Assembly (NCBI GenBank): GCA_964615765.1 | Contig: CAZTQN010000004.1 | Location: forward strand, 44,291 to 108,290 | Reading direction: 5' to 3' | Length of the DNA stretch: 64,000 nucleotides | From: an uncultured Phycisphaeraceae bacterium | GTDB lineage: Bacteria > Planctomycetota > Phycisphaerae > Phycisphaerales > UBA1924 | Shown here: positions 894-47,219 of the stretch, one piece after another | Numbering within the stretch: the first letter of the stretch is position 1 | How the letters are laid out: each line of letters starts with the position of its first letter | Notes under the pieces: generated by a model | The model's database searches: none | What the model was told of the DNA's origin: nothing | Seen by the model: the letters and a program-made list of their open reading frames with translations, nothing else | Program-made: the position numbers and the translations under genes

Positions 894-1727
894 GTGACCA
901 CCACGCCCCCCACTTCTCCCGACGCGCACGCCGCCCACTCCCACCCCGACGCGCTGCCGGCATGGACCGACCGCGACTTGTCGGCGAGCCCGCACGCCCG
1001 CGAGGACAAGCCCGAGCGCGTCCGGCGCATGTTCGCGGCGATCGCCGGGTCGTACGACCTCAACAACCGCGTGCACGCGCTGTGGCAGGACCAGGCCTGG
1101 CGACGCTTCGCCGTGCGCGTCAGCGCACTCCGCGCCGACGACCGCGTGCTCGACGTCGCGTGCGGCACGGGCGATTTGTCGGAGTGGTTCGCGCGCGGCG
1201 GGGCCCGCGAGGTCGTCGGGCTGGACTTCACGGCCGAGATGCTCGACATCGCGCGCGTGAAGGCGACGCGCCGCACGCCGCGCTGGCACGCCGAACGCAT
1301 CCGCTACATGCAGGGCGACGCGCAGCAGCTCCCGTTCGACGACGCGTCGTTTGATGTGGTCTCGATCGCCTTCGGCATCCGCAACGTGCTGCAGCCGGCG
1401 CGGGCGCTGGCGGAGTTCCGGCGCGTGCTGCGTCCGGGCGGGCGGCTGGTGGTGCTCGAGTTTGCCGAGCCGCGCTTCGGGCCCGTGCGCTGGTTCAACC
1501 GCGTGTACTGCCAGCGGATCATGCCCGTGACGGCGACGCTGATCAGCGGGGATCGCTCAGGGGCGTACAAGTATCTGCCCAAGAGCGTGGCGACGTTCAT
1601 GACGCCCGAAGAGCTCAGCGCCGCGATGGTGACCGCAGGCTTTTCCCCGGGCGTGCGCCGATGGTCGCTGTCCTTGGGCATCTGCGTCTGCTACCGGGCG
1701 GAAGTCCCGGGCCCGCGGGCGAAATAG
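894..1727 (+). CDS. ubiE: Demethylmenaquinone/ubiquinone C-methyltransferase (UbiE/MenG family)
   Basis: This is the frame of ORF 531..1727. It carries ERVRRMFAAIAGSYDLNNRV, VLDVACGTGDL (SAM motif I), LRPGGRLVVLEF and YKYLPKSV. The start is placed at the in-frame GTG 894 because the upstream part overlaps the divergent M48 gene and a lower-GC gap. TTG 978 is an alternative start. ATG 1029 is too late because it removes the conserved ERVRRMF. Confidence 0.8.
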   Translation: MTTTPPTSPDAHAAHSHPDALPAWTDRDLSASPHAREDKPERVRRMFAAIAGSYDLNNRVHALWQDQAWRRFAVRVSALRADDRVLDVACGTGDLSEWFARGGAREVVGLDFTAEMLDIARVKATRRTPRWHAERIRYMQGDAQQLPFDDASFDVVSIAFGIRNVLQPARALAEFRRVLRPGGRLVVLEFAEPRFGPVRWFNRVYCQRIMPVTATLISGDRSGAYKYLPKSVATFMTPEELSAAMVTAGFSPGVRRWSLSLGICVCYRAEVPGPRAK

Positions 1728-1940
1728 CGGGCGACTCCGGATATCGGGATACGCAAGAGTGCAGTCGAAAAAGGCTGTCGCGACACGGATATTCGTGGAC
1801 GCTCTTGCGGCCCGTGGTATGCTGCGCGACTCGCGCGCGCCGGTTCTCTGGCCGCCCGCGGGGCGCTGGTTTCCGGTCGTCCGGCCGACCGCAGGCGCGG
1901 GGTGGTGAGGGAAGCCCGGCCTCGTTGGGAGCACGAAAAC

Positions 1941-4900
1941 ATGCGTCGAGTTCGCGCGTCGGTGGTGGGCGGCCTCGCGGCGGTCCTGGTCAGCATCGCG
2001 GGTCAGGCGGCGAGCGCACAGACGTCGACGCCGCTGTCGACCGCGTTCACCTATCAGGGCCAGGTCCGCGTCGGGACCGGGTTGATCAACGGGACCGTGG
2101 ACCTCGAGTTCCGGCTCTTCGATTCCGCGTTCGGCGGGCTGCAGATCGGCCCGACGCTGTCGACCTCGAACACCGTCGTCGTCAACGGGCGATTCACCAC
2201 CAGCCTGGACTTCGGCCCCGGCGCCTTCAACGGCGACGGGCGCTGGCTGCAGATCGCCGTCCGCAACCCCGCGGGCGTCGGCTCGTTCGTCACGCTCGCG
2301 CCGCGCCAGGGCATCCTCGCCGCCCCGTACGCGCTGTACGCCCTCAACGCGACCCCCGGCCCCCAGGGCCCGCAGGGCGAGCCCGGCCCGCAAGGCCCGG
2401 CCGGCCCCGCCGGTGCGGATGGCGCCCCGGGCGCGCAGGGTCCCACCGGTCCGGCCGGTCCCGCTGGTGCGCAAGGCCCGGCTGGTCCGGCTGGCCCCGC
2501 CGGCACTGATGGTGCTCCGGGTGCGCAGGGCCCTGCCGGTCCGGCTGGACCTGCCGGTCCGCAGGGCCCGGCTGGCCCCGCCGGCGCTGACGGCGCTCCG
2601 GGCGCACAAGGCCCCGCCGGTCCCGCTGGTCCGCAGGGTCCGGCTGGCGCCGACGGCGCTTTGGGTGCACAAGGCCCCGCCGGTCCCGCCGGTCCGGCTG
2701 GCCCCGCTGGCGCTGACGGCGCTCCGGGCGCACAAGGCCCCGCTGGTCCCGATGGTCCGCAGGGTCCGGCTGGCCCCGCTGGCGCTGACGGCGCTCCGGG
2801 TCCGCAGGGTCCCGCTGGTCCGGCTGGTCCGCAGGGCGAAGCCGGTCCGCAGGGGCCGCAGGGTCTGCCGGGGATTCCGGGCCCGGCCGGTGCGGATGGC
2901 GCGCCCGGTGCGCAAGGGCCCCAGGGTCCGCAGGGCCCGGCCGGTGCGAACGGCAACTCCGCCGCCCGCTATGTCGTCGGGCCTTTGCTCGACGTCGGCG
3001 TGACGCACACGAGCATTCAGGCGGCGATCGCGGCCGCCGTCGGTGATGGGTTCGGCAACGCCGGCCCGCAGACGGTCATCCTCGTTCGTCCCGGCACGTA
3101 CAACGAGAACGTCTCTCTCGTCGCCGGCATTCACGTGCAGTCGTCGGTCGTTGATCGTTCCTTCGCCGCGACCGTGAACGGGCAGGTCTCGTTCACCGCC
3201 GGCGGCGTCACGTCGTGGAACGGCGTCGACATCAACGGCGGCTCCGGCGCCAGCGGCCTGAACTTCGGCGGGGCCGCGTTCCAGCAACTGTTCCTCAACA
3301 ACACGTTCGTCTACGGCAACAACGCCCCGGCGCTCGACATGAGCAACACCGGCGCCGGCTCCAACATCAGCGTCACCGCCGGCAACTTCCGCGCCACCAC
3401 CGGCACCGTCACGCCCGTCAACGTCACCGCCGGCACGCTGCTGGCGCAGGACACCACCTTCCGCCAGTTCGGAACTTCGTTCGACAACACCGCGATCTCC
3501 GTCGGCGCCGCCGGGCGCGTGTTCCTCAACAACGCCGACATCTTCGGCGTGGTGGCGCACGGCGGGGGCGACTCGTCCATCTCCGGGAGCGTGATCCGCA
3601 GCAACGCTCTGCCCCCGGTCGTCGCCAGCGGCGCGGGCTCGCTCGTGCTGGGCGACACCGGCATCCAGACCGGCACGCCGGGCGCGCTGATCGTCGACTC
3701 CGGCTCGGGCAGCGTCTTCTACACGCAGCTCACCTGGTCTCTGCCGTCGCAGTCGATCCCGGCGACGGCGGTCCTGCTGCCCGGCAGCGGCCCGACGGGC
3801 CCGGCTGGTCCGCAGGGCCCGCAGGGCGTGGCCGGTCCGGCTGGACCGGCCGGTCCGCAGGGCGAAGCGGGTCCCGCCGGCCCGGCGGGCGCCGACGGCG
3901 CGCCGGGGCCGCAGGGTTTGCCGGGTGTCGCTGGTCCCGCGGGTCCGGCTGGCCCGCAGGGCGAGGCCGGTCCGCAGGGGCCGCAGGGTCTGCAAGGGAT
4001 TCAGGGCCCGGCTGGTCCGGCCGGCGCGGATGGCGCGCCGGGTGCGCAGGGTCCGGCTGGTCCCGTTGGCCCGCAGGGTCTGCAGGGTCTGCAAGGCCCT
4101 GCGGGTCCCGCTGGTCCGCAGGGTGAACCGGGTCCGGCTGGTCCTGCTGGTCCGGCCGGCGCTGATGGCGCGCCGGGTGCGCAGGGTCCGGCCGGCGCTG
4201 ATGGCGCGCCGGGTGCGCAGGGTCCGGCCGGCGCTGATGGTGCACCGGGCGCGCAGGGTCCTGCTGGTCCCGCCGGTCCGGCTGGCCCGCAGGGCGAAGC
4301 GGGTCCGCAGGGACCGCAGGGTCTGCAAGGGCTTCAGGGCCCGGCTGGTCCGGCCGGTCCGCAAGGCGAGGCCGGTCCGCAGGGGCCGCAGGGTCTGCAA
4401 GGGATTCAGGGACCCGCTGGTCCGGCCGGCGCCGATGGCGCACCGGGTGCGCAGGGTCCCGCTGGCCCCGCCGGTCCGCAGGGGCTGCAAGGTCTTCAGG
4501 GACCGGCCGGGGCGGATGGCGCGCCGGGGGCGCAAGGTCCGCAGGGGCCTCAGGGCCCGGCGGGTCTGAACAACGTCACCTGGCAGGGCACGTGGAGCGC
4601 TGCGACGACGTACGCCGTGAATGACGCGGTCTTCTATCTCGGATCGAGCTACCGCTCGCTGGTCGCGGGCAACGTCAACGCGCAGCCGGACGCTTCGCCG
4701 GCTTCGTGGGCCCTGTTCGCCGCGGGCGGCGGGTCGGGCAACGCGACGCTGACGGCGGGCGGTCTGCTCGCGAGCACCGCCAACTCGACCATCGGCTACA
4801 CCTTCGGCAATACCAACAACGGCAACGGCAGCGGCGTCAACACACGCTCCAACGGCCTGTGGGGTCGCATCGGGAGCGGAACCTCCGGGAACCTGCCGGT

Positions 4901-5876
4901 CGGGACGGCCGTCCCGTCCGGCGTCGGCCTGTCCAACACCAACTTCGCCATCGGCACCCTCGGCACCGCGACGGGCAACAGCGTCGGCGTCGTCGGGAGC
5001 GTGGGCACTGCCGGCGCGGTCGGGGTCTGGGGTCACAACGACAACACCGCGGGCAGCACCGGGTGGAACGTCGGCGTGATCGGCACGTCCGCCGGCACCG
5101 GCAACGCCGCCACCGGCGTCTTCGGGCAAGCCAACCGCGGCGTCTCGGGCTCTTCGGGCCTGGCCGCCAACGGCAGCAACCCGACGCAGGCCAACCGCCT
5201 GCCGGGCGGCGGCGTGTACGGCGCAACCACCAACACCAACGGCAACGCCGGCTTCTTCCTCGGGCGCGTCGTGATCGAGAACACCTTCGCCGCCGGCGCC
5301 CCGACCAACGACCAGGGCGCGGGCAGCCCCGACCCGTTCATCGTCTGGACCAACAGCGGGGCCTCCGGCTTCAACCGCTCCGGCGCGCTGTTCACCCCGT
5401 CGGACCGCAACTCCAAGTCCGGCTTCACCCCGGTCGACGGCGTCGACGTGCTCAACACGCTCGTCAACACGCCCGTCACCCGCTGGCACTACAAGGGCGA
5501 TGACACCACCTGGTACATGGGCCCGATGGCGCAGGACTTCAAGGCCGCGTTCAACCTCGGCGACAAGGACACCGTCATTCACGGCGTGAACGCCGACGGC
5601 GTCGCGCTCGCCGCGATCCAGGGTCTCAACACCAAGCTCGAAGCCGCGCTCAAGCAGCGTGACCAGACCATCGCCGCGCAGCAGCAGACGCTGGCTTCGA
5701 TGGAAGCCCGCATCGCGAAGCTGGAGTCCGCGTCGTCCTCGGGCGGCACGGTGCTGATCCAGCGGGCCGGCATCGGGCTGGGCGTGCTCGGGCTGCCGCT
5801 GCTGGGCATCGCGCTGTGGCGCCGCCGCGGCGGCAAGCGTGGGGAGCAGACCGGCACGAACGGGGGTGCGGCGTGA
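1941..5876 (+). CDS. Secreted collagen-like / tail-fibre-like surface protein with C-terminal Peptidase_S74-type intramolecular chaperone domain and hydrophobic Arg-rich anchor
   Basis: ATG 1941 is preceded by GGGAGC. The signal peptide is [27 protein letters not shown]. An FTYQG...RWLQIAVR N-terminal domain is followed by two long G-X-Y tracts flanking an Asn/Gly/Thr-rich beta-helix-like segment. Next come [24 protein letters not shown] (CBM5/12-like) and a Gly/Asn/Thr fibre region. The S74 pattern is SDRNSK...TRWHYK...YMGPMAQDF...[19 protein letters not shown] coiled coil is followed by [24 protein letters not shown]. Confidence 0.85.
2358..2954 (+). repeat. Collagen-like G-X-Y tract 1 (66 uninterrupted triplets) inside the 1941..5876 CDS
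   Basis: Translation runs [27 protein letters not shown]... to ...[13 protein letters not shown] with Gly at every third residue. The DNA is highly self-similar GGN-CCG/GCN units. Confidence 0.9.
3789..4565 (+). repeat. Collagen-like G-X-Y tract 2 (86 uninterrupted triplets) inside the 1941..5876 CDS
   Basis: Translation runs [19 protein letters not shown]... to ...[13 protein letters not shown] with Gly at every third residue. Recurring blocks are [21 protein letters not shown] and [12 protein letters not shown]. Confidence 0.9.
4149..4256 (+). repeat. Three tandem 36-bp units ([12 protein letters not shown] x3); first two copies are nucleotide-identical
   Basis: 4149-4184 and 4185-4220 are both ggtccggccggcgctgatggcgcgccgggtgcgcag. 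4221-4256 differs at three synonymous third positions. Confidence 0.9.
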
Positions 5877-6295
5877 AGACCCCGCACCTTCTTCCGGCAC
5901 GGCGCGGCGGGCTGATCCGCCGCGCCGCGATGATCGCGCCCGTGCTCGCCCTCGCCGGCGGCGCGGGCGCGCAGACGACCATCCCCTGGTCGACCATCGA
6001 CTCCGGCGGCGGGACCTCCGTCGCCGGGGCGCTCGAGATCACCGGCACGATCGGCCAGCCCGACGCCGGCGAGAGTTCGGGCGCGGGCCTGGCGCTGCAG
6101 GGCGGCTACTGGGCCGTCGACCGGCGCTGCCCGGCGGACGTCAACGACGACGGCGTCGTGACCACGCAGGACCTGTTCGACTTCGTCGCGTTCTACTTCG
6201 GGACCGAAGTGGCCCTCGCCGACATCAACAACGACCAGGTCGTGTCCACGCAGGACATCTTCGAGTTCCTCGCGGCGTGGTTCACGCCGTGTTGA
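5873..6295 (+). CDS. Small secreted protein with two C-terminal dockerin-like repeats ending in Cys
   Basis: GTG 5873 overlaps the upstream stop as GTGA (5873-5876). The signal-like N-terminus is [33 protein letters not shown]. It is followed by [42 protein letters not shown]. The C-terminus is [50 protein letters not shown] then stop. ATG 5930 is an alternative start. Confidence 0.75.
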
Positions 6296-6350
6296 ACAGG
6301 TGAGCGGCGTACGACACGCCGCCGTGCTACAAGCTCAAGCGATCGCCAAC

Positions 6351-6395
6351 CGCCCCGCGCTCTGAACACTCAGGGCGCGGGGCGATGTGTTTTTG
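6351..6395 (+). terminator. Intrinsic terminator between convergent genes
   Basis: A 10-bp GC stem (cgccccgcgc at 6351-6360 and gcgcggggcg at 6375-6384) is followed by atgtgttttt, with a T-run at 6390-6394. Confidence 0.7.
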
Positions 6396-6411
6396 AGGTG
6401 CTGTCGCTCGT

Positions 6412-7803
6412 TCAGGCCTTGCGAGCGCGTTCGCGCGGCGAGCCGAGGACGCCCGCCGTCATGCGGGCCACGCGCAGACGCAGACGCAGGCGGCGCAGGG
6501 CCGCATCGTGCGGATCAGCCGCGAGGGCGCGGCGGACGCATGCGAGGGCCCGGCGGTAGCGGCCTTGGCGAGCCAGCGCGACGGCGAGGTTGTGCCACGC
6601 CGCGGCCAGCGAGGGATCGAGCGCCAGCGCCCGGCGGGCCGACTTGATGCCCGCGGCGACGTCGCCCGAACGGAACGCCGCGAAGCTGGCCAGTTGCAGC
6701 GTCCGCGCGTCCGGCGGGACCAGCCCGATCGCCCGCACGAGCACATCGCGGGCCAATTCCGGCAGGCCGGCGTCGAGCATCGTGTGCGCGAGGGCGACGA
6801 GTTCTTCCGCCGCTTCGCCGGGCGGGACGTCCGCCGCTCGCGCCAGCGCAGTGCCCGCGGCTTCTTCGACGGGAGCCGCGGCGGCTTCGAGCAGTTGCCG
6901 AGCCTGGCGCAAATCGGCCGGGTCGCCCCGGCGCAGGAGCACCGCCGCGGCCCGACGCCGCGCCGACGGGAAGTTCTGATCGAGTCGCAGCAGCAGCCCG
7001 AACGCGTCGGCCGCCTGATCGTCCTGGCCCTGGCGCTCGGCCAGATCGCCCAGGTAGAACAGCGCCGACACGTTGTCGGGCTCGATCTCGAGCACGCGCC
7101 GGAACTTCTCGGAGGCCTCGGCGTGCCGGTTCATGTCAACCAGCAGGCAGCCCAGATCGAGCAGCGTGTCGATGTCGCCCGGATCCGTGCGGAGTTCGCG
7201 GAGATAGAGCTGGCGGGCCCGTTCGAGGCGACCGGTCGCGGCGAAGCCCTCGGCCAGCCGCGCGTGGATCCGCGGCATCGCGGGGTCAAGCTGGGCCGCC
7301 GAGCGCAGGCACCACACGGCCTTGTCGCGCAGCCCGCGGATCATGAGCGACTCGGCGAGATTGGCCAGCGCGCCCGCGTCCTTCGGGTTGACTTGCTGGG
7401 CCATGTAGAACATCAGCTCGGCCTGCTCGTGGTCGCCCAGGCGCGTGTACGCCTCGATGCGGTGCACCCAGGACGCCGCGTCCGACGGGTCGAGCGGCTG
7501 GGCCTTTTCGAAGAAGTAGATGCTCTCGCGCGGCTTGCCGGCGCGGAGCAGGTTGACGCCCGCCGCCAGCAGCGGGGCCGCGTCGTCGGGCTCGAGTTCG
7601 TGCGCGTCCGAGAACGCGCGGGCCGCGGCGTCATACCGACCGCTCGCCTCGAGCGTCAGCCCAAGGTTGAAGTGCCACTCGGCCTTGAAGGGGTTCAGGG
7701 AGAGGGCTTCGCGGAGCGCGGATTCGGCTTCTTCCCAACGCCCGGCCTCGTAGGCCGCGTGGGCTCGTTCAACGTGCACCTCGGCATCGAACCACTCGCT
7801 CAT
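6412..7803 (-). CDS. TPR repeat-containing protein
   Basis: There are repeated 34-residue TPR-like units, for example AHAAYEAGRWEEAESALREALSLNP, NLGLTLEASGRYDAAARAFSDAHELEP and WHNLAVALARQGRYRRALACVRRALAADP. The start is set at ATG 7803 (MSEWFDAEV). GTG 7878 is an alternative that would leave only 5 nt to the upstream gene. Confidence 0.8.
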   Translation of the reverse strand: MSEWFDAEVHVERAHAAYEAGRWEEAESALREALSLNPFKAEWHFNLGLTLEASGRYDAAARAFSDAHELEPDDAAPLLAAGVNLLRAGKPRESIYFFEKAQPLDPSDAASWVHRIEAYTRLGDHEQAELMFYMAQQVNPKDAGALANLAESLMIRGLRDKAVWCLRSAAQLDPAMPRIHARLAEGFAATGRLERARQLYLRELRTDPGDIDTLLDLGCLLVDMNRHAEASEKFRRVLEIEPDNVSALFYLGDLAERQGQDDQAADAFGLLLRLDQNFPSARRRAAAVLLRRGDPADLRQARQLLEAAAAPVEEAAGTALARAADVPPGEAAEELVALAHTMLDAGLPELARDVLVRAIGLVPPDARTLQLASFAAFRSGDVAAGIKSARRALALDPSLAAAWHNLAVALARQGRYRRALACVRRALAADPHDAALRRLRLRLRVARMTAGVLGSPRERARKA

Positions 7804-7883
7804 GGACGCACTCACAGGTCGGTCAGGATGCCCGTCACTCGAACGCCCATCGTAGCCCCCGAGGCCCAGCCCCGGCACGCGTG

Positions 7884-8306
7884 TTACCGCCCCAGGCGGA
7901 CCAGGACATCATCCAGAATGGCGCGGCTGACGGCCTCGTCGCCGAACACGCCGGACTCGATGCTCACGCGCACGCCGCTGGGCACCAGGCGGGCCCCGAT
8001 GACGACGGATTCGTCGCGCCCGTTGACGCGTGCGCGGGCCCGCAATCGGGCCGCGTCGCGCGTCACGCCGCTGCCCTCGATGACGTACCCGCGGTCCAGC
8101 AGCGTCGCCTCGGCGGCGGCGTGCGCCTGCGGGACACTCACCTCCTGGGGGAGATTCGCGCTGAGCGTGCCCATCGCGTAGCCGGCCATCACGCGGCGCT
8201 CGCGACCGTGCGCCTCGACGCGGGTCTGCTGGCAGCCGCCGATCGCGGTTAAGCCCGCGAGCAGGCCCGCGGGCACAAGCACACTCAACACGCGATGGAC
8301 GGGCAT
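7884..8306 (-). CDS. Predicted lipoprotein, unknown function
   Basis: MPVHRVLSVLVPAGLLAGLTAIGGC is a signal peptide with a lipobox. The amino-acid composition is balanced. The gene starts 3 nt after the stop of the upstream NYN-like gene. Confidence 0.7.
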   Translation of the reverse strand: MPVHRVLSVLVPAGLLAGLTAIGGCQQTRVEAHGRERRVMAGYAMGTLSANLPQEVSVPQAHAAAEATLLDRGYVIEGSGVTRDAARLRARARVNGRDESVVIGARLVPSGVRVSIESGVFGDEAVSRAILDDVLVRLGR

Positions 8307-8309
8307 GGG

Positions 8310-9011
8310 CTACTCCCGATCAGGCCGACGCGGCGGCGGCGTTCCGCCGCGCCCCGGCGGTGGATCGACCGAGTCGAGCGAGCGGGCCCAATCTTCGATG
8401 TCGGCGAGCAGTTGCGGATCGAGTTCCGGCTCGCCGGACGGCGACGCGGGGCGCACGGGCTGACCGGGTTTCTGCGCGGGCGGGGGCGCATCGGGCGCGA
8501 CGCCGAACGCGCGGAGCCAGTGGGCGACGGAGTCCCGGTCGAGCGCGTCGCGGGCGGCGAAGTCGGGGCGGTCGCCGGTGCGGAGACGTTCGTGGGCCGC
8601 GGCCCGGCGCGCGTCTTGGGTGAGCAGCTCCAGAAACGCCGGGCTGGCGGCCCAGCGGGCCCGCACGCCGACGGCGGCCTGTTGCACACGCCGGTCGGAA
8701 CTGACCACCAGGGCCACATGGGCCCGCCCCGCCGCGTGCAGGCGGTCGAGCAGGGCCTCGATCAGGCTGTCGGCGTCCTGCCCGGGCCCGGCGAACAGGA
8801 ACCGGGGCCCGGGCGCGTCGGCCAGACCGCTCGGGCGATCCGTCGAGCGGGCCAGCCCGCCGGCGGTGCCGTCGCAGACCAGCCAGGCGGGGGCGGAGCG
8901 GTACCGCCCGAGCGCGACCAGGTCGAACAAACGGTGCGGGGAAAGCGGGTGCAGCGGGTGCCGGGCGCTGGCGGCGGCGTGCACGACATTGAAGACATCA
9001 ACGATGAGCAT
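8310..9011 (-). CDS. NYN/YacP-like (PIN-fold) putative RNA-binding or ribonuclease protein with Pro-rich C-terminal tail
   Basis: The N-terminus MLIVDVFNVVHAAAS resembles the LxVDGYNVI start of YacP/NYN proteins. It also has VCDG, a GQDADSLIEALL acidic motif and VVSSDRRVQQAA. The assignment is by motif only. Confidence 0.5.
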   Translation of the reverse strand: MLIVDVFNVVHAAASARHPLHPLSPHRLFDLVALGRYRSAPAWLVCDGTAGGLARSTDRPSGLADAPGPRFLFAGPGQDADSLIEALLDRLHAAGRAHVALVVSSDRRVQQAAVGVRARWAASPAFLELLTQDARRAAAHERLRTGDRPDFAARDALDRDSVAHWLRAFGVAPDAPPPAQKPGQPVRPASPSGEPELDPQLLADIEDWARSLDSVDPPPGRGGTPPPRRPDRE

Positions 9012-9176
9012 CGGTAGGGCCGAGAGAGTCCAAGGGGGCGGGCGGCTTGATCGGCGCGGGGAACGCCCCTTTACTTTCGGCCCTGCTCGGCGCGCCCGGT
9101 GCGGGCCGGCATCCGGTCGGCCCGAGTGTTCCGGCAGGGACCAGGCACCACGTTCAACAGGGAATCAGAGGTATTC

Positions 9177-9509
9177 ATGGCGATCCGGATCAAAGCGCGG
9201 AGCGGGGAATCGGCGGAGCAGATGCTGCGGCGCTTCAAGAAGCTCTGCGAAAAGGAAGGCCTGGTCAAGGACATCAAGCGGAAAGAGTACTACGAGAAGC
9301 CCTCCGAGCGGGCCCGCCGCACCGTGCGCAAGGCCATCGGTCGGCGCCTCCGCGAGGCCATGGGCCCCATCGCCCCCAAGGGCAAGGGCGGCAAGGGCGG
9401 CCCCGGCGCTGAACGCCGTGGCGGCGGCGGCGGTGGTGGTGGTGGCGGCGGCTTCGGGGGCGGGTTCGGTGGTGGTGGCGGCGGCGGATTCGGCGGCGGC
9501 GGGTACTGA
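9177..9509 (+). CDS. rpsU: 30S ribosomal protein bS21 with Gly/Phe-rich C-terminal extension
   Basis: AGAGG lies 7 nt upstream of ATG 9177. MAIRIKARSGESAEQMLRRFKKLCEKEGLVKDIKRKEYYEKPSERARR is a canonical bS21 core. The tail is KGKGGKGGPGAERRGGGGGGGGGGGFGGGFGGGGGGGFGGGGY. Confidence 0.9.
   Translation: MAIRIKARSGESAEQMLRRFKKLCEKEGLVKDIKRKEYYEKPSERARRTVRKAIGRRLREAMGPIAPKGKGGKGGPGAERRGGGGGGGGGGGFGGGFGGGGGGGFGGGGY
9420..9506 (+). repeat. GGN/TTC trinucleotide tract encoding the poly-Gly/Phe tail of bS21
   Basis: The sequence ggcggcggcggtggtggtggtggcggcggcttcgggggcgggttcggtggtggtggcggcggcggattcggcggcggcgggtac lies in frame with rpsU. Confidence 0.85.
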
Positions 9510-9568
9510 TCCCGGCTTGACCGCCAGACCGGTCCCCACCGCGTCGCCGGTGAACAAATCAGGAACAC

Positions 9569-9611
9569 ACATGAGCGTGCGGCTGCCCCAGGGAAGGCCG
9601 CACGCTCATGT
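9569..9611 (+). terminator. Perfect 15-bp stem-loop downstream of rpsU (terminator-like, no U-tract)
   Basis: acatgagcgtgcggc (9569-9583) pairs perfectly with gccgcacgctcatgt (9597-9611) across a 13-nt loop. No T-run follows, so termination is plausible but unproven. Confidence 0.45.
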
Positions 9612-9853
9612 CACGCGCGCTGGCCCCGGCTTTGGGTTTGCCCCGGGTCCGCAGCGATTGCTGAATCGGCCGCTCGATCGCCGACACTGAGTGCCAACAA
9701 TCGGCCCCTCGCCGCGCGTGTCTCACACGCGGCATCGAAGGCCGCGCTGTGGTAGTCTGACGACCCCGCGCGGGCCGGCTCTGCCGGCGAGCGGCTGTCA
9801 CAACTTCCCGCCCCGCCCCGCGGTGCGGAGAACCCGTTTTCGGAGGACGGACC

Positions 9854-12703
<2,850 letters not shown>

Positions 12704-15849: not shown

Positions 15850-17079
15850 TCACGCCGCGCCCGGCGCCGGGCCCAGCGTTCGCGTCACGATCACGCTCAT
15901 CGGCGCGATCACGTACTTTGCGCGGCAGCGCACGCCCACCAGCCGGTTGATCGACGACCCCGCCCGCTCCGCCGCCCGCGCGATCAGTTCGCCCGTCCGC
16001 GGATACGCCGGGTCGGCCCCGAGCAGTTCCGGACCCAGCGGCTCGATGTCCGTCAGGTCGTACATGTACGCCGGGTCGTCGTTCGAGACCGGCTGCATCG
16101 GGTGCCCGGTCGACGCGTCGAAGCACTGCATCTTCAGCGACTGCCGGAACGTCGCGCTCTCGGCCAGCGTCTTGTCCATCAGGCAGTCGATCAGCAGCGT
16201 CTCCGTCGGGATCAGGCAGTTGAACGCGATCTGGTTGAACCAGTTGCGGTCTTCCATGTACCGGGGGTTTTCGTACGACGGCATCCCGGTGAACACGATC
16301 GTCGACGCCGCGGCGTGCCCCACCGGGCCCGCCTTCAGCACCACCCACCCGCGGTGCCGATCGATCAGATATTCCAGGTCGTCCGCCGTCGCCGTGGACA
16401 GATCGGGCTCGAGCCGGAACTTGTCCGCCATGAACGAGCGCATCAGGGCCGCGTCCATGTCGGGCGAGCCGTCGTCGTTGGTCGGGGCTTCGAGGTAAAA
16501 CAGGCGGCTGCGATGCCCGGCCCGGATCCGCGTCACGTTGCGCAGGCACTGGTACGACGCCATCGAGACGCGGTCGGCCCGCCCCTGGCGCGACGGCGCG
16601 AAGATGATCCCGCGGATCTGCGTCTCCACCCGCGCGCCCAGCAGCGCGCACTGGGCCCGGTGCGCGTCCCGGCGCAGGTCCTCCGTCCGCGCTTCCATCT
16701 CCCCCCGGTCCCACGTCGCGGCCAGGAGCGCCAGCGTCGGCCGATCGCGTGCGTGCGTCTCGATGGCCCGGTCCAACCGCTCGATCGCTTTGCGGAGCGG
16801 GTTGAGGTCGTCCGCCGGCACACCGTTCGGGCCCGCCGCACTGGCTTCCACAAACAGGCTCAGCCCCCGCGCCCCGGGCATGACGGCGAGCCCCGCCGAC
16901 GCCTGCGGCTGGCAGGCGATCGTCGACACCTGCCAGGCCAGTTGCCGGTTGACCCCGAGCCGATTTCCGATCGACGCGCCAGATCGTGGGTCCAGCCCGA
17001 GTATCTGCAGAGCGCGAAGCACCTCATACCGCAGTGTGGTGTACGCCTCATCAAGCTCGGATAGGGCAAAGTCGGGCAT
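15850..17079 (-). CDS. Hypothetical protein, 409 aa, no recognisable family
   Basis: The start is ATG 17079. The amino-acid composition is balanced (Y, F, N, I, K, M, C all present), unlike the overlapping Arg/Gly/Pro-rich ORFs 15698..16714 and 15793..17064. I recognise no motif. The N-terminal ~60 aa (TLRYEVLRALQILGLDPRSGASIGNRLGVNRQLAWQVS) could be a winged helix. Confidence 0.65.
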   Translation of the reverse strand: MPDFALSELDEAYTTLRYEVLRALQILGLDPRSGASIGNRLGVNRQLAWQVSTIACQPQASAGLAVMPGARGLSLFVEASAAGPNGVPADDLNPLRKAIERLDRAIETHARDRPTLALLAATWDRGEMEARTEDLRRDAHRAQCALLGARVETQIRGIIFAPSRQGRADRVSMASYQCLRNVTRIRAGHRSRLFYLEAPTNDDGSPDMDAALMRSFMADKFRLEPDLSTATADDLEYLIDRHRGWVVLKAGPVGHAAASTIVFTGMPSYENPRYMEDRNWFNQIAFNCLIPTETLLIDCLMDKTLAESATFRQSLKMQCFDASTGHPMQPVSNDDPAYMYDLTDIEPLGPELLGADPAYPRTGELIARAAERAGSSINRLVGVRCRAKYVIAPMSVIVTRTLGPAPGAA

Positions 17080-17236
17080 GCGGTCGACCCGGGCGGGACG
17101 CGCCAGTTATAGCCGGCGGCCGGAAATGGTTGAATCGGCCCGCCCCGACTTTTCGATCAGTACTGATGGCATTCGTGACGGATTCAAGTATACTCCAGCC
17201 GGCCGGAATCACCAGGAATCCCATCAGGAGGCACCG

Positions 17237-18784
17237 ATGACGAGCAGGATCACCGGAGCGCGACACCGCCGAATGTGCTTTGCCTGCGGGGCGGGATTCC
17301 TGCTGGTTGCCGCTGCGCAACCCCTTTCCGCACAGACGTTTATCCGCCCCATTGTCACGGAACTTGAGTCGTCTCCCACGGTCCTTCAGGCTGAGCCGCT
17401 GATTACGGTGAGCGCCCTGCTGCAGAGCGAAATCTCGTGCAGCCCGAACGGGCTGTACTGGGGCTGCGAGGTCTTCACAGAGGTTGGCACTCCTCCGGCG
17501 GTCACCACCGCCGATGCCGCCATCAGCGGCACTCGGGCCGGGGTGTCCTGGTATGTCGCCCGCGGCCAGAACATCCCCGGGCTTGGCGTGGCCACGGACA
17601 CCGGCGGGATCGATGAGCGTGTGCTCGTGAACAACGCGGGCGATGTCAGCCTGTCGTGCAACCTGACGGGCCCGACCTCGACCGACGAAGCGATTATCCG
17701 CTGGACCCGCGCGACGGACACATACCAGTTCACGGCCCGAGAGGGCTCGACGATCGGTGTGTTTCCGGGTGAGACATACGGCCTGAACATGGTGCAGCGC
17801 GCGTTCCTCAACGACGGACGCATCGCGTTTTTCAACTCCAGCACGAACGGCGTGCTCCCGAGTTCAGCGGACGACTTTCTCTTCCTGAGCGGCAACCCGC
17901 CGACCGTGGTCGCGCAGAACGGCGGGGCGACGCCCGTGGGCCAGTCGTTCACCCCGCCGTCGGTGATCACGGCGCTCGAGGACGAGTTCGCCGTGAACGC
18001 CACGGGAACGCGGTCGATCTACACCGCGCTGGTCGGGGTCGGGGCGGCGGCGCGCGAGGTCGCGGTCGTCGACGGGAACGTCGTGCTCGAGATCGGGCAG
18101 AACCTGCCCGGGATCACCGGCACGTTCACGCGGATCGACACCATCAGCGATGTGCGGATGAGCGCGAGCGGGCGGTGGGCGGCCCACGGGCGCGCGTCGG
18201 ACGGCGTGACCACCCCGGGCCCGAACTACCTCGTCGTCGACGGACAGGTGCTCTTCAGCGGCGACGTGACCATGCCCGGCGGGTTCGCCGGCGAGGCGGT
18301 GATCTCCGTCATCGACCTCGGGTTCACGACGCAGGGCGATCTGTGGTACGGCGTGGTCACCAGCTTCGGCCGCTCGGTGGTGATGGTCATCCCGGTCGCG
18401 CCCGGCAGCCCCCCCATCACCGCGTTCGAGACCGGCTCCGCCCTCGACCTCAACAACAACGGCGACCCGTTCGACGATCAGGCGACCGTCACGGGGATCT
18501 TCTCCGCGGCCCTCGCGGACGACGGCACGCTGTACCTGATCACCCGCAACTCGGCCCCGGTGTCGCAGTTCCAGTTCGACGTCATCGGGTGGACCACCGT
18601 CGATCTGCCGGTCGTGTGCCGGGCCGACATCAACGGGCAAGGCGGGATCACCGTCCAGGACATCTTCGACTTCCTCGCGGCGTGGTTCGCCGGCGGGGCG
18701 AGCGGCGACTTCAACGGGCAGGGCGGGATCACGGTGCAGGACATCTTCGATTTCCTCGCCGCGTGGTTCGCCGGCTGCCCGTGA
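17237..18784 (+). CDS. Secreted protein with two C-terminal dockerin-like repeats ending ...WFAGCP (GC-type dockerin)
   Basis: AGGAGG (17225-17230) lies upstream of ATG 17237. The signal peptide is MTSRITGARHRRMCFACGAGFLLVAAAQPLSAQ. The C-terminus is CRADINGQGGITVQDIFDFLAAWFAGGASGDFNGQGGITVQDIFDFLAAWFAGCP. The part of track ORF 16538..18784 upstream of 17237 is antisense to the neighbouring gene. Confidence 0.8.
   Translation: MTSRITGARHRRMCFACGAGFLLVAAAQPLSAQTFIRPIVTELESSPTVLQAEPLITVSALLQSEISCSPNGLYWGCEVFTEVGTPPAVTTADAAISGTRAGVSWYVARGQNIPGLGVATDTGGIDERVLVNNAGDVSLSCNLTGPTSTDEAIIRWTRATDTYQFTAREGSTIGVFPGETYGLNMVQRAFLNDGRIAFFNSSTNGVLPSSADDFLFLSGNPPTVVAQNGGATPVGQSFTPPSVITALEDEFAVNATGTRSIYTALVGVGAAAREVAVVDGNVVLEIGQNLPGITGTFTRIDTISDVRMSASGRWAAHGRASDGVTTPGPNYLVVDGQVLFSGDVTMPGGFAGEAVISVIDLGFTTQGDLWYGVVTSFGRSVVMVIPVAPGSPPITAFETGSALDLNNNGDPFDDQATVTGIFSAALADDGTLYLITRNSAPVSQFQFDVIGWTTVDLPVVCRADINGQGGITVQDIFDFLAAWFAGGASGDFNGQGGITVQDIFDFLAAWFAGCP
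18632..18775 (+). repeat. Two 63-bp dockerin-repeat coding units (18632-18694, 18713-18775)
   Basis: The units differ at 5 of 63 positions (caa/cag, acc/acg, gtc/gtg, gac/gat, gcg/gcc). All differences are third-position and synonymous, so both encode NGQGGITVQDIFDFLAAWFAG. Confidence 0.9.
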
Positions 18785-46096: not shown

Positions 46097-47050
46097 TCAG
46101 GCGCATCCGCCGAAGTACGCGCTCAGGTAGTCGAAGATGTCCTGCACGGTGATCCCGCCGGCGCCGTTGAAGTCGGCCCGCGGATCGCCGCTGAAGTACG
46201 CCGTCAGGAAGTCGAAGATGTCCTGCACCGTGAGCGAGCCGGAGTTGTTGAAGTCCGGGCGGCAGTCGTTGAAGCGGAAGCCCATGTCATCCCAGAAAAT
46301 CGTCCCCTGGCTGAACGCCAGGCTCTGCGGCGGGCCGAACCGCAGCGGGAGCACGCTCACCTTCGCGTCCGGGTTCTGCGGCGGGAGGGCCCACAGCTGC
46401 CCCGTGCCCGGGTTGATGTACAGCGCTTCGTTCTGCTGCACCGTGCGCTCGAACCGAACCCACTGATCGTTCGTGTGGATCCCCGGGCCGTTCGGCGTCG
46501 TCACAACCACAATCCCCGGAACGTTCGTCGCCACGTTCGGGTCGTTCGGGTTGATGTCCAGCCACTCGGGACCGACATAGGTCGAGTCGTTCACCGTGCG
46601 CCGGAACTCCAGCTTCAGCCCCGCACGCTGCCCCGCGAAGCCCGACAGCCCCTGGCTGACAAACGGCGTCGCCGACGGGATGTAGAAATAGCCCCACACC
46701 GTGATCGACGGCTCCCCGATCCCGAAGCGGTACCCCGCGTTGTTCACCGGGCTCCCCAGCGTCCCGCGGTCCAGCGGCGAGTTGCTCGAGAAGCCCGCGA
46801 AGTCCGAGCCCATCGGCAACTCGATGCTGCGCGTCCCCGTGCGAGCCACGGCGGCCGGCGTGAGCCCGTCACCGATCTCGCGGTACGTCGCCGAGTTGAA
46901 GCGGTCCCAGCCCGAGGGATACGACGCGTTGAACGGGTCCGGCGTTTCAAAGCTCGTGTTCTGCAGTTGCTGGAACGGCTGCGCCTGCGCGACGCCGCCC
47001 GCCGTCACACACGCGCCGATCGCCAGCGCCTTCATCATCCCGGTCTTCAT
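46097..47050 (-). CDS. Secreted jelly-roll/CBM-like protein with two GC-type dockerin-like repeats (ends ...YFGGCA)
   Basis: AGGAG lies upstream of ATG 47050. The signal peptide is MKTGMMKALAIGACVTAGGVAQAQ. The QNTSFETPDPFN...WDRF...GYFYIP...LKLEFRR pattern is reminiscent of CBM4/9/22-type beta-sandwiches. The C-terminus is CRPDFNNSGSLTVQDIFDFLTAYFSGDPRADFNGAGGITVQDIFDYLSAYFGGCA. Confidence 0.75.
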   Translation of the reverse strand: MKTGMMKALAIGACVTAGGVAQAQPFQQLQNTSFETPDPFNASYPSGWDRFNSATYREIGDGLTPAAVARTGTRSIELPMGSDFAGFSSNSPLDRGTLGSPVNNAGYRFGIGEPSITVWGYFYIPSATPFVSQGLSGFAGQRAGLKLEFRRTVNDSTYVGPEWLDINPNDPNVATNVPGIVVVTTPNGPGIHTNDQWVRFERTVQQNEALYINPGTGQLWALPPQNPDAKVSVLPLRFGPPQSLAFSQGTIFWDDMGFRFNDCRPDFNNSGSLTVQDIFDFLTAYFSGDPRADFNGAGGITVQDIFDYLSAYFGGCA

Positions 47051-47219
47051 GCTGATCTCCTGATGATCCGTTGATTGTTTCCCAGTGCCCAGGCCCCGTC
47101 CGCCCCGCTCCGCCGACAACCGCTCCAAACTCCCGCGACCCGCCCCGATAACCCACGCCGGCGCGGCCACCGGCGGCACGTCCGTAACCGCTTACATTCT
47201 GCCCCACATCCGGCCCCCG

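Follow-up and report, generated by a model that had tools for sequence, protein, structure and literature searches.

The described system closest to the locus reported here is the superfamily of mosaic adhesive trimers (MAT) in Bdellovibrio bacteriovorus, which Caulton et al. 2024 (PMC10769870) defined for chromosomal, Sec-secreted fiber proteins of ~1000 residues that carry a signal peptide and an invariant beta-rich N-terminal domain of ~130 residues without a homolog in the PDB and that form long trimeric fibers. In Bdellovibrio, 13 of the 21 members end in an S74 domain with the motif SDxxxK, and self-cleavage has been demonstrated for Bd3182, where it is blocked by the exchange S782A; MAT members are also listed in the Planctomycetes-Verrucomicrobia-Chlamydiae (PVC) group, one member has a collagen-like tip, and the surface element bound by the MAT N-domain was left unidentified by the authors (PMC10769870). 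The same paper mentions no transmembrane segment and does not present the capping-loop motif as obligatory. A membrane-tethered use of the S74 domain is known from eukaryotes, since the S587/K592 dyad of MYRF carries out a trimerization-dependent self-cleavage that frees an N-terminal trimer from the membrane (PMC3742440), and the S74-helix-transmembrane arrangement also occurs in Dictyostelium MrfA (PMC3828593; for MYRF and MrfA see also PMC8326128). The dyad cleaves wherever it has been tested, that is, in endoNF and MYRF (PMC3742440) and in Bd3182 (PMC10769870). Here, we describe a gene on the plus strand, at positions 1941-5876, of a stretch of DNA of 64,000 nucleotides (the window) from an uncultured Phycisphaeraceae bacterium (contig CAZTQN010000004.1, positions 44,291 to 108,290), the product of which is probably a secreted homotrimeric fiber of the MAT kind that combines collagen-like stalks with a membrane-tethered assembly module.

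In its architecture, the window protein resembles MAT members as a chromosomally encoded, secreted fiber protein with a signal peptide, a beta-rich N-domain without a PDB homolog, a long and presumably trimeric shaft, and a C-terminal S74 domain with SDxxxK. It differs from them in its shaft, which consists of two collagen-like runs around a putative pectinesterase-like beta-helix, whereas the MAT shaft is a continuous beta-helix with capping loops; in the helix, membrane anchor, and Arg cluster that follow S74; in its host, presumably a non-predatory Phycisphaerae-type planctomycete, in contrast to the predatory Bdellovibrio; and in the conserved, dockerin-bearing partner gene that comes after the fiber gene. 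With MYRF and MrfA, on the other hand, it shares an S74/ICA domain that contains a Ser-x4-Lys dyad and leads into a helix and then a transmembrane segment, and the ICA domain of MYRF (7dc3) is its best PDB match both by profile and by fold. MYRF is eukaryotic and frees a cargo with an Ndt80-type DNA-binding domain on the cytoplasmic side of the endoplasmic reticulum membrane, whereas the cargo of the window protein is a structural fiber that would be freed extracytoplasmically; an Ndt80-type domain was not found among its Pfam matches, and the protein would resemble MYRF in mechanism without being a member of its family. The phage ICA domains (K1F endoNF 3gw6, GA-1 3gud, and T5 pb1) resemble the window protein in Pfam family, dyad, and C-terminal place on a trimeric fiber but, unlike it, belong to proteins with neither a signal peptide nor a membrane anchor. 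Finally, the bacterial collagen-like proteins Scl1/Scl2, Lcl, BclA, and Pasteuria Pcl are also secreted, with long uninterrupted G-X-Y runs and a non-collagen trimerization domain that nucleates the helix; they differ in that they are anchored by LPXTG or other means and trimerize through V-domains or TNF-like domains instead of S74. The NCBIfam models for Scl1, Scl2, and Lcl stayed below their cut-offs (227 versus 325, 225 versus 500, and 180 versus 400), with matches to the repeats only. In the literature searched, we found no description of a transmembrane anchor on an S74 protein from bacteria, and the bacterial membrane-tethered S74 module, the collagen/beta-helix/collagen shaft, and the conserved coupled dockerin partner all appear to be undescribed there. 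Secreted chromosomal fibers ending in S74 (MAT, PMC10769870) and the release of an anchored trimer by S74 cleavage (MYRF, PMC3742440) are already described, so that a preliminary description of this stretch, made from its letters alone, had overstated the novelty of the protein.

Peptidase_S74 (PF13884) is recognized at residues 1154-1204 with 29.9 bits against a gathering score of 22 (E = 6.7e-7), and Collagen (PF01391) with E = 2e-67, so that the S74 and collagen matches required by the preliminary description are both significant. The motif reads SDRNSK, with Ser1154, the codon of which is at nucleotide 5400 as had been stated, and with Lys1159 five residues on. In an alignment of 23 diverse relatives (A1), no variation is seen at the Ser, Asp, and Lys of SDxxxK, nor at a W and the motifs G.AQDF and GV.LAA.QGL, and Ser and Lys are still invariant among the 103 sequences of a larger alignment (A5). 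An AlphaFold2 model of residues 1129-1311, built with 103 sequences as a monomer and without a membrane, predicts the S74 region with a local distance difference test score (pLDDT) of 97-98, places beta strands immediately N-terminal to Ser1154, and extends the domain into one continuous 54-residue helix (residues 1215-1268); confidence is low in the hydrophobic tail, as is to be expected of a membrane-free monomer. When this model was compared with the PDB by Foldseek, the top ten matches were all ICA structures, with the MyRF ICA domain 7dc3 first (E = 1.4e-3, probability 1.0, target-normalized TM-score 0.5), followed by endoNF 3gw6 and GA-1 3gud, and no other structures came comparably close; the modest scores reflect the comparison of a monomer model with chains taken from intertwined trimers. 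By sequence profile, the sole S74 match was again 7dc3 (E = 0.019), in which the catalytic Ser and Lys align with the mutated Ser position and the Lys of MyRF. Single-sequence searches of the PDB with the C terminus or with the beta-helix core returned nothing useful, and profiles were needed. Family match, conserved dyad, and predicted fold together support the assignment to Peptidase_S74/ICA proposed in the preliminary description.

What follows the S74 domain distinguishes this protein from the MAT members described. The C-terminal 434 residues define a family in Phycisphaerae and Planctomycetota (40-65% identity), the named members of which are annotated "tail fiber domain-containing protein" and most database entries of which are fragments interrupted at the collagen repeats. 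Two orthologs are full length: one (L003, 7361-11389) has 1342 residues in a module order identical to that of the window protein, to which its N-domain is 61%, its core 46%, and its C-terminal part 51% identical, and the other (L001, 7781-11173) has 1130 residues. In all 30 close relatives with a complete C terminus, a hydrophobic helix is followed by RRR(R/K) within the pattern aG(I/L)G(L/I)G..G(L/V)P...RRR; 28 of these meet a strict hydropathy threshold, and the other two share the motif. In the window protein, this helix lies 122 residues beyond Ser1154, after the modeled long helix, and it is the only membrane anchor, so that the preliminary description was right both about the order of coiled coil, hydrophobic helix, and RRRGGKR and about an anchor placed C-terminal to the cleavage Ser. 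To judge from its sequence, the helix with RRRGGKR would be a stop-transfer anchor with a cytoplasmic tail. An analogous tail is present in eight of 83 more distant bacterial S74 proteins, the remainder of which stop after the coiled coil, and in a single one of 47 S74 loci in IMG/VR, where the protein is secreted and has the same N-domain. Because ~90% of the distant bacterial relatives lack it, the anchor seems to have been added to a module that normally parts from the fiber.

Two other readings of this C terminus have to be weighed. Its tripartite layout at the extreme end of the chain, with a motif kept in 30 of 30 close relatives, might instead belong to an undescribed sorting signal like those of the exosortase, rhombosortase, or sortase systems, in which case a dedicated enzyme would remove the tail and attach the fiber, or hand it over, by its C terminus, S74 being only a chaperone or staying on the mature fiber. 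Weak, sub-threshold matches to CTERM models (GlyGly, PEP, VPDSG, MYXO, and CoaP) in the tails of the protein and its relatives fit such a signal; however, among ten tails compared with the NCBIfam CTERM models (PEP, GlyGly, MYXO, LPXTG, and similar), none reaches a cut-off, the best match of the window tail being GlyGly_CTERM at 7.4 bits versus 15.5, and the matches span the generic helix-plus-Arg part only. Moreover, 5-15 extra residues follow the basic cluster in the window protein and several relatives, no such tail was found among the other secreted window proteins that were examined, which use GC-type dockerins, and the invariant Ser and Lys of S74 would be needless if another protease freed the protein; a sorting signal is in our view improbable. 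Alternatively, the S74 domain may not cleave at all, and the full-length trimer would then be retained at the inner membrane by its anchor, as a lasting structural fiber in the periplasm or spanning the envelope. The topology is indeed that of a type I membrane protein, no outer-membrane export route has been identified, and Planctomycetota reportedly can have enlarged periplasmic spaces, but a permanently anchored fiber sits poorly with the invariance of Ser1154, Asp1155, and Lys1159, with the cleavage seen in each of the three proteins named above, and with the absence of an anchor from ~90% of the distant bacterial relatives, and we consider it quite unlikely. As to the ends of these proteins, many unanchored relatives (P0033-P0120 and the fibers in L022, L035, L041, L053, L072, and L086) finish in GG(V/A/G)R or GANR after the coiled coil, and in anchored proteins the Arg cluster is often followed by GG(K/R), as in RRRGGKR of the window protein.

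The genomic setting is cellular. Upstream of the fiber gene lie genes for Peptidase_M48 and UbiE, and downstream, after the partner gene, genes for TPR, DUF3568, NYN/YacP, ribosomal protein S21, and H+-pyrophosphatase; no phage gene was found in the 1.9 kb upstream or the ~10 kb downstream, and no tRNA gene in the 64-kb window. Orthologs sit in three different housekeeping contexts, with glycosyltransferases, trigger factor, an M28 peptidase, and MgtE in L001 and L004 and with astacin, CofH, and aldehyde dehydrogenase in L003, which bears out the non-prophage setting proposed in the preliminary description. The nearest record, a 6.4-kb Logan contig (L135), holds a C-terminal fragment that is 99% identical, in the same gene order. 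A phage-derived tail fiber, that is, prophage, tailocin, or contractile-injection-system cargo lodged among housekeeping genes, nevertheless deserves consideration, since PHROG tail-fiber families score very high, mostly from the collagen repeats, and since the S74 subfamily is present in 47 IMG/VR loci at 33-53% identity. Three IMG/VR contigs also encode distant secreted proteins with N-domain and S74, one of them anchored (L088 6243-8339, L098 6750-8372, and L103 5613-8405); the gene in L088 adjoins a phage-type integrase gene and that in L103 a lambda-family portal gene and a gene for a TIR/SEFIR protein. Either such fibers sometimes travel on mobile elements or these contigs are misclassified, and the fiber class is not strictly barred from mobile elements. 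For the window gene, on the other hand, only two phages in 50,697 phage records match, at 36% identity and in the S74 core only, a scan of IMG/VR with a single N-domain protein gave no confirmed close relatives, and 46 of the 47 IMG/VR S74 proteins stop directly after the S74 helix, without an anchor. Assembly of a virion or tailocin in the cytoplasm is not compatible with a protein that carries a cleavable Sec signal peptide together with a C-terminal stop-transfer anchor, and prophage cargo is therefore rejected for this gene; a phage origin of this kind strikes us as highly improbable.

The fiber gene is intact from its ATG at 1941 to its TGA at 5874-5876, and its modules are collected in Table 1. 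The preliminary description had the reading frame, the order of modules, and the motifs of this 1311-residue secreted protein correct; its two collagen-like runs stand, with 67 and 87 uninterrupted triplets in place of the 66 and 86 that it had counted. A minus-strand open reading frame of 1447 residues (1557-5900) that spans the fiber gene was rejected, all domain evidence being on the plus strand; it and the many overlapping open reading frames arise from the high G+C content and the collagen (G-X-Y) codons. No defense-system match to the fiber or partner protein was obtained with PADLOC.

Table 1. Features of the fiber gene and its partner gene in the window
Feature	Residues	Position (nt)	Strand	Evidence
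Shine-Dalgarno-like GGGAG		1927-1931	+	Ends 9 nt 5' of ATG 1941; read from sequence
Fiber gene	1311 in all	1941-5876	+	Open reading frame and translation; Pfam Collagen and Peptidase_S74; full-length orthologs L003 and L001
Predicted Sec-type signal peptide, AASA-then-Q cleavage point, without lipobox Cys	1-26	1941-2018	+	Sequence; equivalent leaders in homologs
All-beta N-domain (FTYQGQ...RWLQIAVR...PYALYAL)	27-139	2019-2357	+	Homologs; AlphaFold2 model
Collagen-like run 1, 67 G-X-Y triplets	140-340	2358-2960	+	Pfam and reading
Putative right-handed beta-helix core, pectinesterase-like at its N-terminal end	341-616	2961-3788	+	PRK10531 partial match; profile
Collagen-like run 2, 87 G-X-Y triplets	617-877	3789-4571	+	Pfam and reading
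CBM5/12-like module (WQGTW...Y...D.V.Y.G..Y)	884-923	4590-4709	+	Sub-threshold Pfam CBM_5_12
Gly/Asn/Thr-rich fiber	924-1153	4710-5399	+	Identity to P0002-P0032; strands in model
Peptidase_S74/ICA domain and long C-terminal helix	1154-1268	5400-5744	+	Pfam, invariant dyad, model, Foldseek
Hydrophobic helix and RRRGGKR	1276-1293 and 1294-1300	5766-5840	+	Kept in 30/30 close relatives and 8/83 distant S74 proteins
Partner gene	140 in all	5873-6295	+	Sequence; NF041540; adjacency in orthologous loci
Terminator-like hairpin and T-rich tail		6351-6394	+	15-bp stem with 12 G-C pairs; 3' of partner gene

The N-domain (113 residues) has more than 2365 homologs, in Phycisphaerales, Acidobacteria, Bacteroidetes, Anaerolineae, and others, none of which has a Pfam assignment, and its AlphaFold2 model (pLDDT 86.9) is an all-beta fold of six strands without a match in the PDB at E<=1e-3. 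A collagen triple helix rises by 0.286 nm per residue, and at this rise the first collagen-like run would span ~57 nm and the second ~75 nm. The collagen-coding DNA (2383-2940 and 3796-4504) consists of imperfect tandem repeats with a period of 36-135 bp, or 36-126 bp in the first run, and 63-90% matching, which is why most database homologs are fragmentary; these repeats are also a likely substrate for strain-to-strain variation in fiber length.

The core between the collagen-like runs comprises 276 residues rich in Asn, Gly, Thr, and Ser and is rare, with 99 representatives among 1.84 billion proteins at E<=1e-3; eight of eight close homologs scanned lie inside collagen-like proteins. It matches the NCBIfam model PRK10531 in part (E = 2.3e-7), and a profile of 20 homologs (A6) matches the pectin methylesterases 1qjv (E = 4.6e-7), 2ntb, and 1xg2 as well as YbhC 3grh, with E values between 5e-7 and 2e-6; the alignment is confined to the first ~90 residues of the core, with the catalytic region of the enzymes outside it, and Pectinesterase and DUF1565 matches in core homologs are weak. 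The core is taken as a probable right-handed, pectin-lyase-like beta-helix, in line with the beta-helix-like core of the preliminary description, and this similarity lends support to the fold and says nothing on enzyme activity. One relative of 2847 residues (P0256) contains five copies of this rare core. Beyond the second run, the resemblance to CBM5/12 noted in the preliminary description holds at the level of the motif only, CBM_5_12 (PF02839) reaching 18.5 bits (E = 0.002) and so failing the family cut-off of 26.2; similarly weak assignments occur in the homologs P0004, P0007, and P0273. The Gly/Asn/Thr-rich fiber that leads up to Ser1154 is 51-65% identical to a family (P0002-P0032) in Phycisphaerae and Planctomycetota.

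The gene directly downstream was passed over in the preliminary description; it proved to be a conserved partner rather than an unrelated neighbor. Its GTG start overlaps the TGA stop of the fiber gene by 4 nt (GTGA), with a GGGGG run 7-11 nt upstream, which suggests from the sequence that the two genes are translationally coupled, and gene callers put the same 4-nt overlap in L135 and L007. The strong terminator-like hairpin at 6351-6384, after the partner gene, suggests a two-gene operon; nothing terminator-like of comparable strength lies between the two genes, and the only other plus-strand match is a weak 6-bp stem inside the fiber gene (4614-4630). No promoter-like sites were found in 1600-6500. 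The partner protein consists of a signal peptide, a module of ~45 residues without a family assignment (W.TID.GGG...GTIGQPDAG...GG(F/Y)W), and a GC-type dockerin, for which NF041540 gives 40.7 bits (cut-off, 29) and which matches dockerin structures at E~1e-3; the literature searched contained no paper on "GC-type dockerin." A homolog of the partner gene adjoins a fiber gene in the window, in L001/L004, in L003, and in L007.

This linkage was also examined from the side of the partner. An independent partner-only scan, with one genome per species, gave at least 423 loci, nearly all in metagenome-assembled genomes (MAGs) of Phycisphaerae and Planctomycetota, of which 80 were retained and searched with hidden Markov models for the N-domain and S74. 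Of the 73 eligible loci, 29 have an N-domain open reading frame that ends no more than 400 nt upstream on the same strand, where fewer than one such adjacency is expected by chance from the N-domain density in the same loci (5.4 per 100 kb), and 18 more have one farther upstream on the same strand. Only three of these fibers carry S74, so that the partner is linked to the N-domain fiber class generally and not to the anchored S74 module.

Variations on this arrangement are found elsewhere. In L003 and L007, fiber genes stand in tandem around one partner gene: the order in L003 is a first fiber gene with N-domain and S74 (3137-6673), the partner gene (6692-7267), and the ortholog of the window gene (7361-11389), and in L007 a fiber gene (1177-2928) is followed by the partner gene (2925-3320) and a second N-domain gene at ~3868. 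A second class of N-domain fibers, encoded 0.7-6 kb upstream of partner genes, shares a different, conserved C-terminal tip that ends in ...TSD.PGHAM...GKAM..L..G.G.VLVLVNLQ (L008, L012, L029, L030, L048, L049, L059, L061, L063, L065, L066, L069, L071, L073, L078, L079, and L081). A partner gene with an upstream N-domain fiber gene is also present in MAGs labeled Fimbriimonadales (L073) and Desulfobacterales (L081), which reflects either a crossing of phyla or contamination of the bins. In the window, two more proteins end in a GC-type dockerin, one of 761 residues (16499-18784, plus strand) and one of 364 residues (46097-47191, minus strand), with NF041540 scores of 39.1 and 42.3 bits against the cut-off of 29; three such proteins in 64 kb point to a general dockerin-based anchoring system in the organism. 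Among the downstream neighbors, ribosomal protein S21 (9174-9509, plus strand) has a C-terminal extension of ~50 residues that finishes in a tract made almost wholly of Gly and Phe (GGGGGGGGGGFGGGFGGGGGGGFGGGGY), which is unusual for S21.

On the reading that we favor, of a MAT-kind fiber made on a membrane-tethered assembly module, the Sec signal peptide would export the chain, and the C-terminal hydrophobic helix would stop transfer with the RRR cluster left in the cytoplasm. Tethering would keep three chains next to one another at the outer surface of the inner membrane, where the S74 domain and the long helix would trimerize at the plane of the membrane, and this would put the Gly/Asn/Thr fiber and both collagen triple helices in register; the triple helices would then zip from the C to the N terminus. 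After correct folding of the trimer, the Ser1154-Lys1159 dyad would cut the chain before Ser1154, leaving a chaperone stub of 158 residues in the membrane and freeing fiber residues 27-1153. The freed fiber would measure more than 130 nm in its collagen segments alone, with three beta-helix domains between them; the Gly/Asn/Thr fiber would become the distal tip after cleavage, and the conserved N-domain would lie proximal to the cell and attach to its envelope. The presumably co-transcribed partner, through its GC-type dockerin, would be the best candidate for attachment of the N-domain or for a step in assembly. In this scheme, trimerization, cleavage, and release are argued from the anatomy of the protein and from the behavior of endoNF, MYRF, and Bd3182; export of the fiber past the periplasm, its service as a surface protein or adhesin, and the role of the partner are likewise proposals.

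Several points weigh against this scheme. The AlphaFold2 model is a monomer and says nothing on the triple helix, and cleavage of the window protein is deduced from precedent. The signal peptide and the stop-transfer helix would place the fiber in the periplasm, from which no route through the outer membrane has been identified, and a fiber of more than 130 nm is hard to fit there. The Gly-rich motif, helix, and Arg cluster resemble PEP-CTERM and GlyGly-CTERM signals, so that another enzyme could process the tail. Membership in the MAT class is argued from architecture, and the MAT capping-loop motif VG(G/N)xxxPxxxL, which the ortholog L001 (VGIGTNTPGALEL) has, as do 34 of 54 N-domain fibers linked to partner genes, is absent from the window protein. 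Finally, 26 of the 73 eligible partner loci have no upstream N-domain fiber gene, and the partner is thus not exclusive to fibers.

We also put forward a more speculative proposal, the two parts of which, taken jointly, we think rather unlikely to hold. The first is that the WYTIDGGGG...GGFW dockerin protein would be the envelope receptor or adaptor of the fiber N-domain, defining a fiber-plus-dock cassette common among Planctomycetota; the second is that bacterial S74-coiled coil-transmembrane modules, rather than phage tailspikes, would be the closest prokaryotic counterpart, and possibly the source, of the ICA-transmembrane cassette of MYRF.

If the MAT-kind reading is true, bacteria would apply the logic of MYRF, in which a chain is tethered, trimerized, self-cleaved, and released, at the outer face of the cytoplasmic membrane, and very long collagen-like fibers would be built with a simple quality control in which only correctly registered trimers are set free. 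The presence of a self-cleaving, membrane-tethered trimerization module beside a long bacterial collagen could also aid the production of recombinant collagen-like materials. From the point of view of the family, the MAT class would extend from predatory Bdellovibrio to free-living Planctomycetota and would gain collagen shafts, and the linked dockerin protein would offer a concrete candidate for how the fiber is held on the cell, a question that the MAT study left open.

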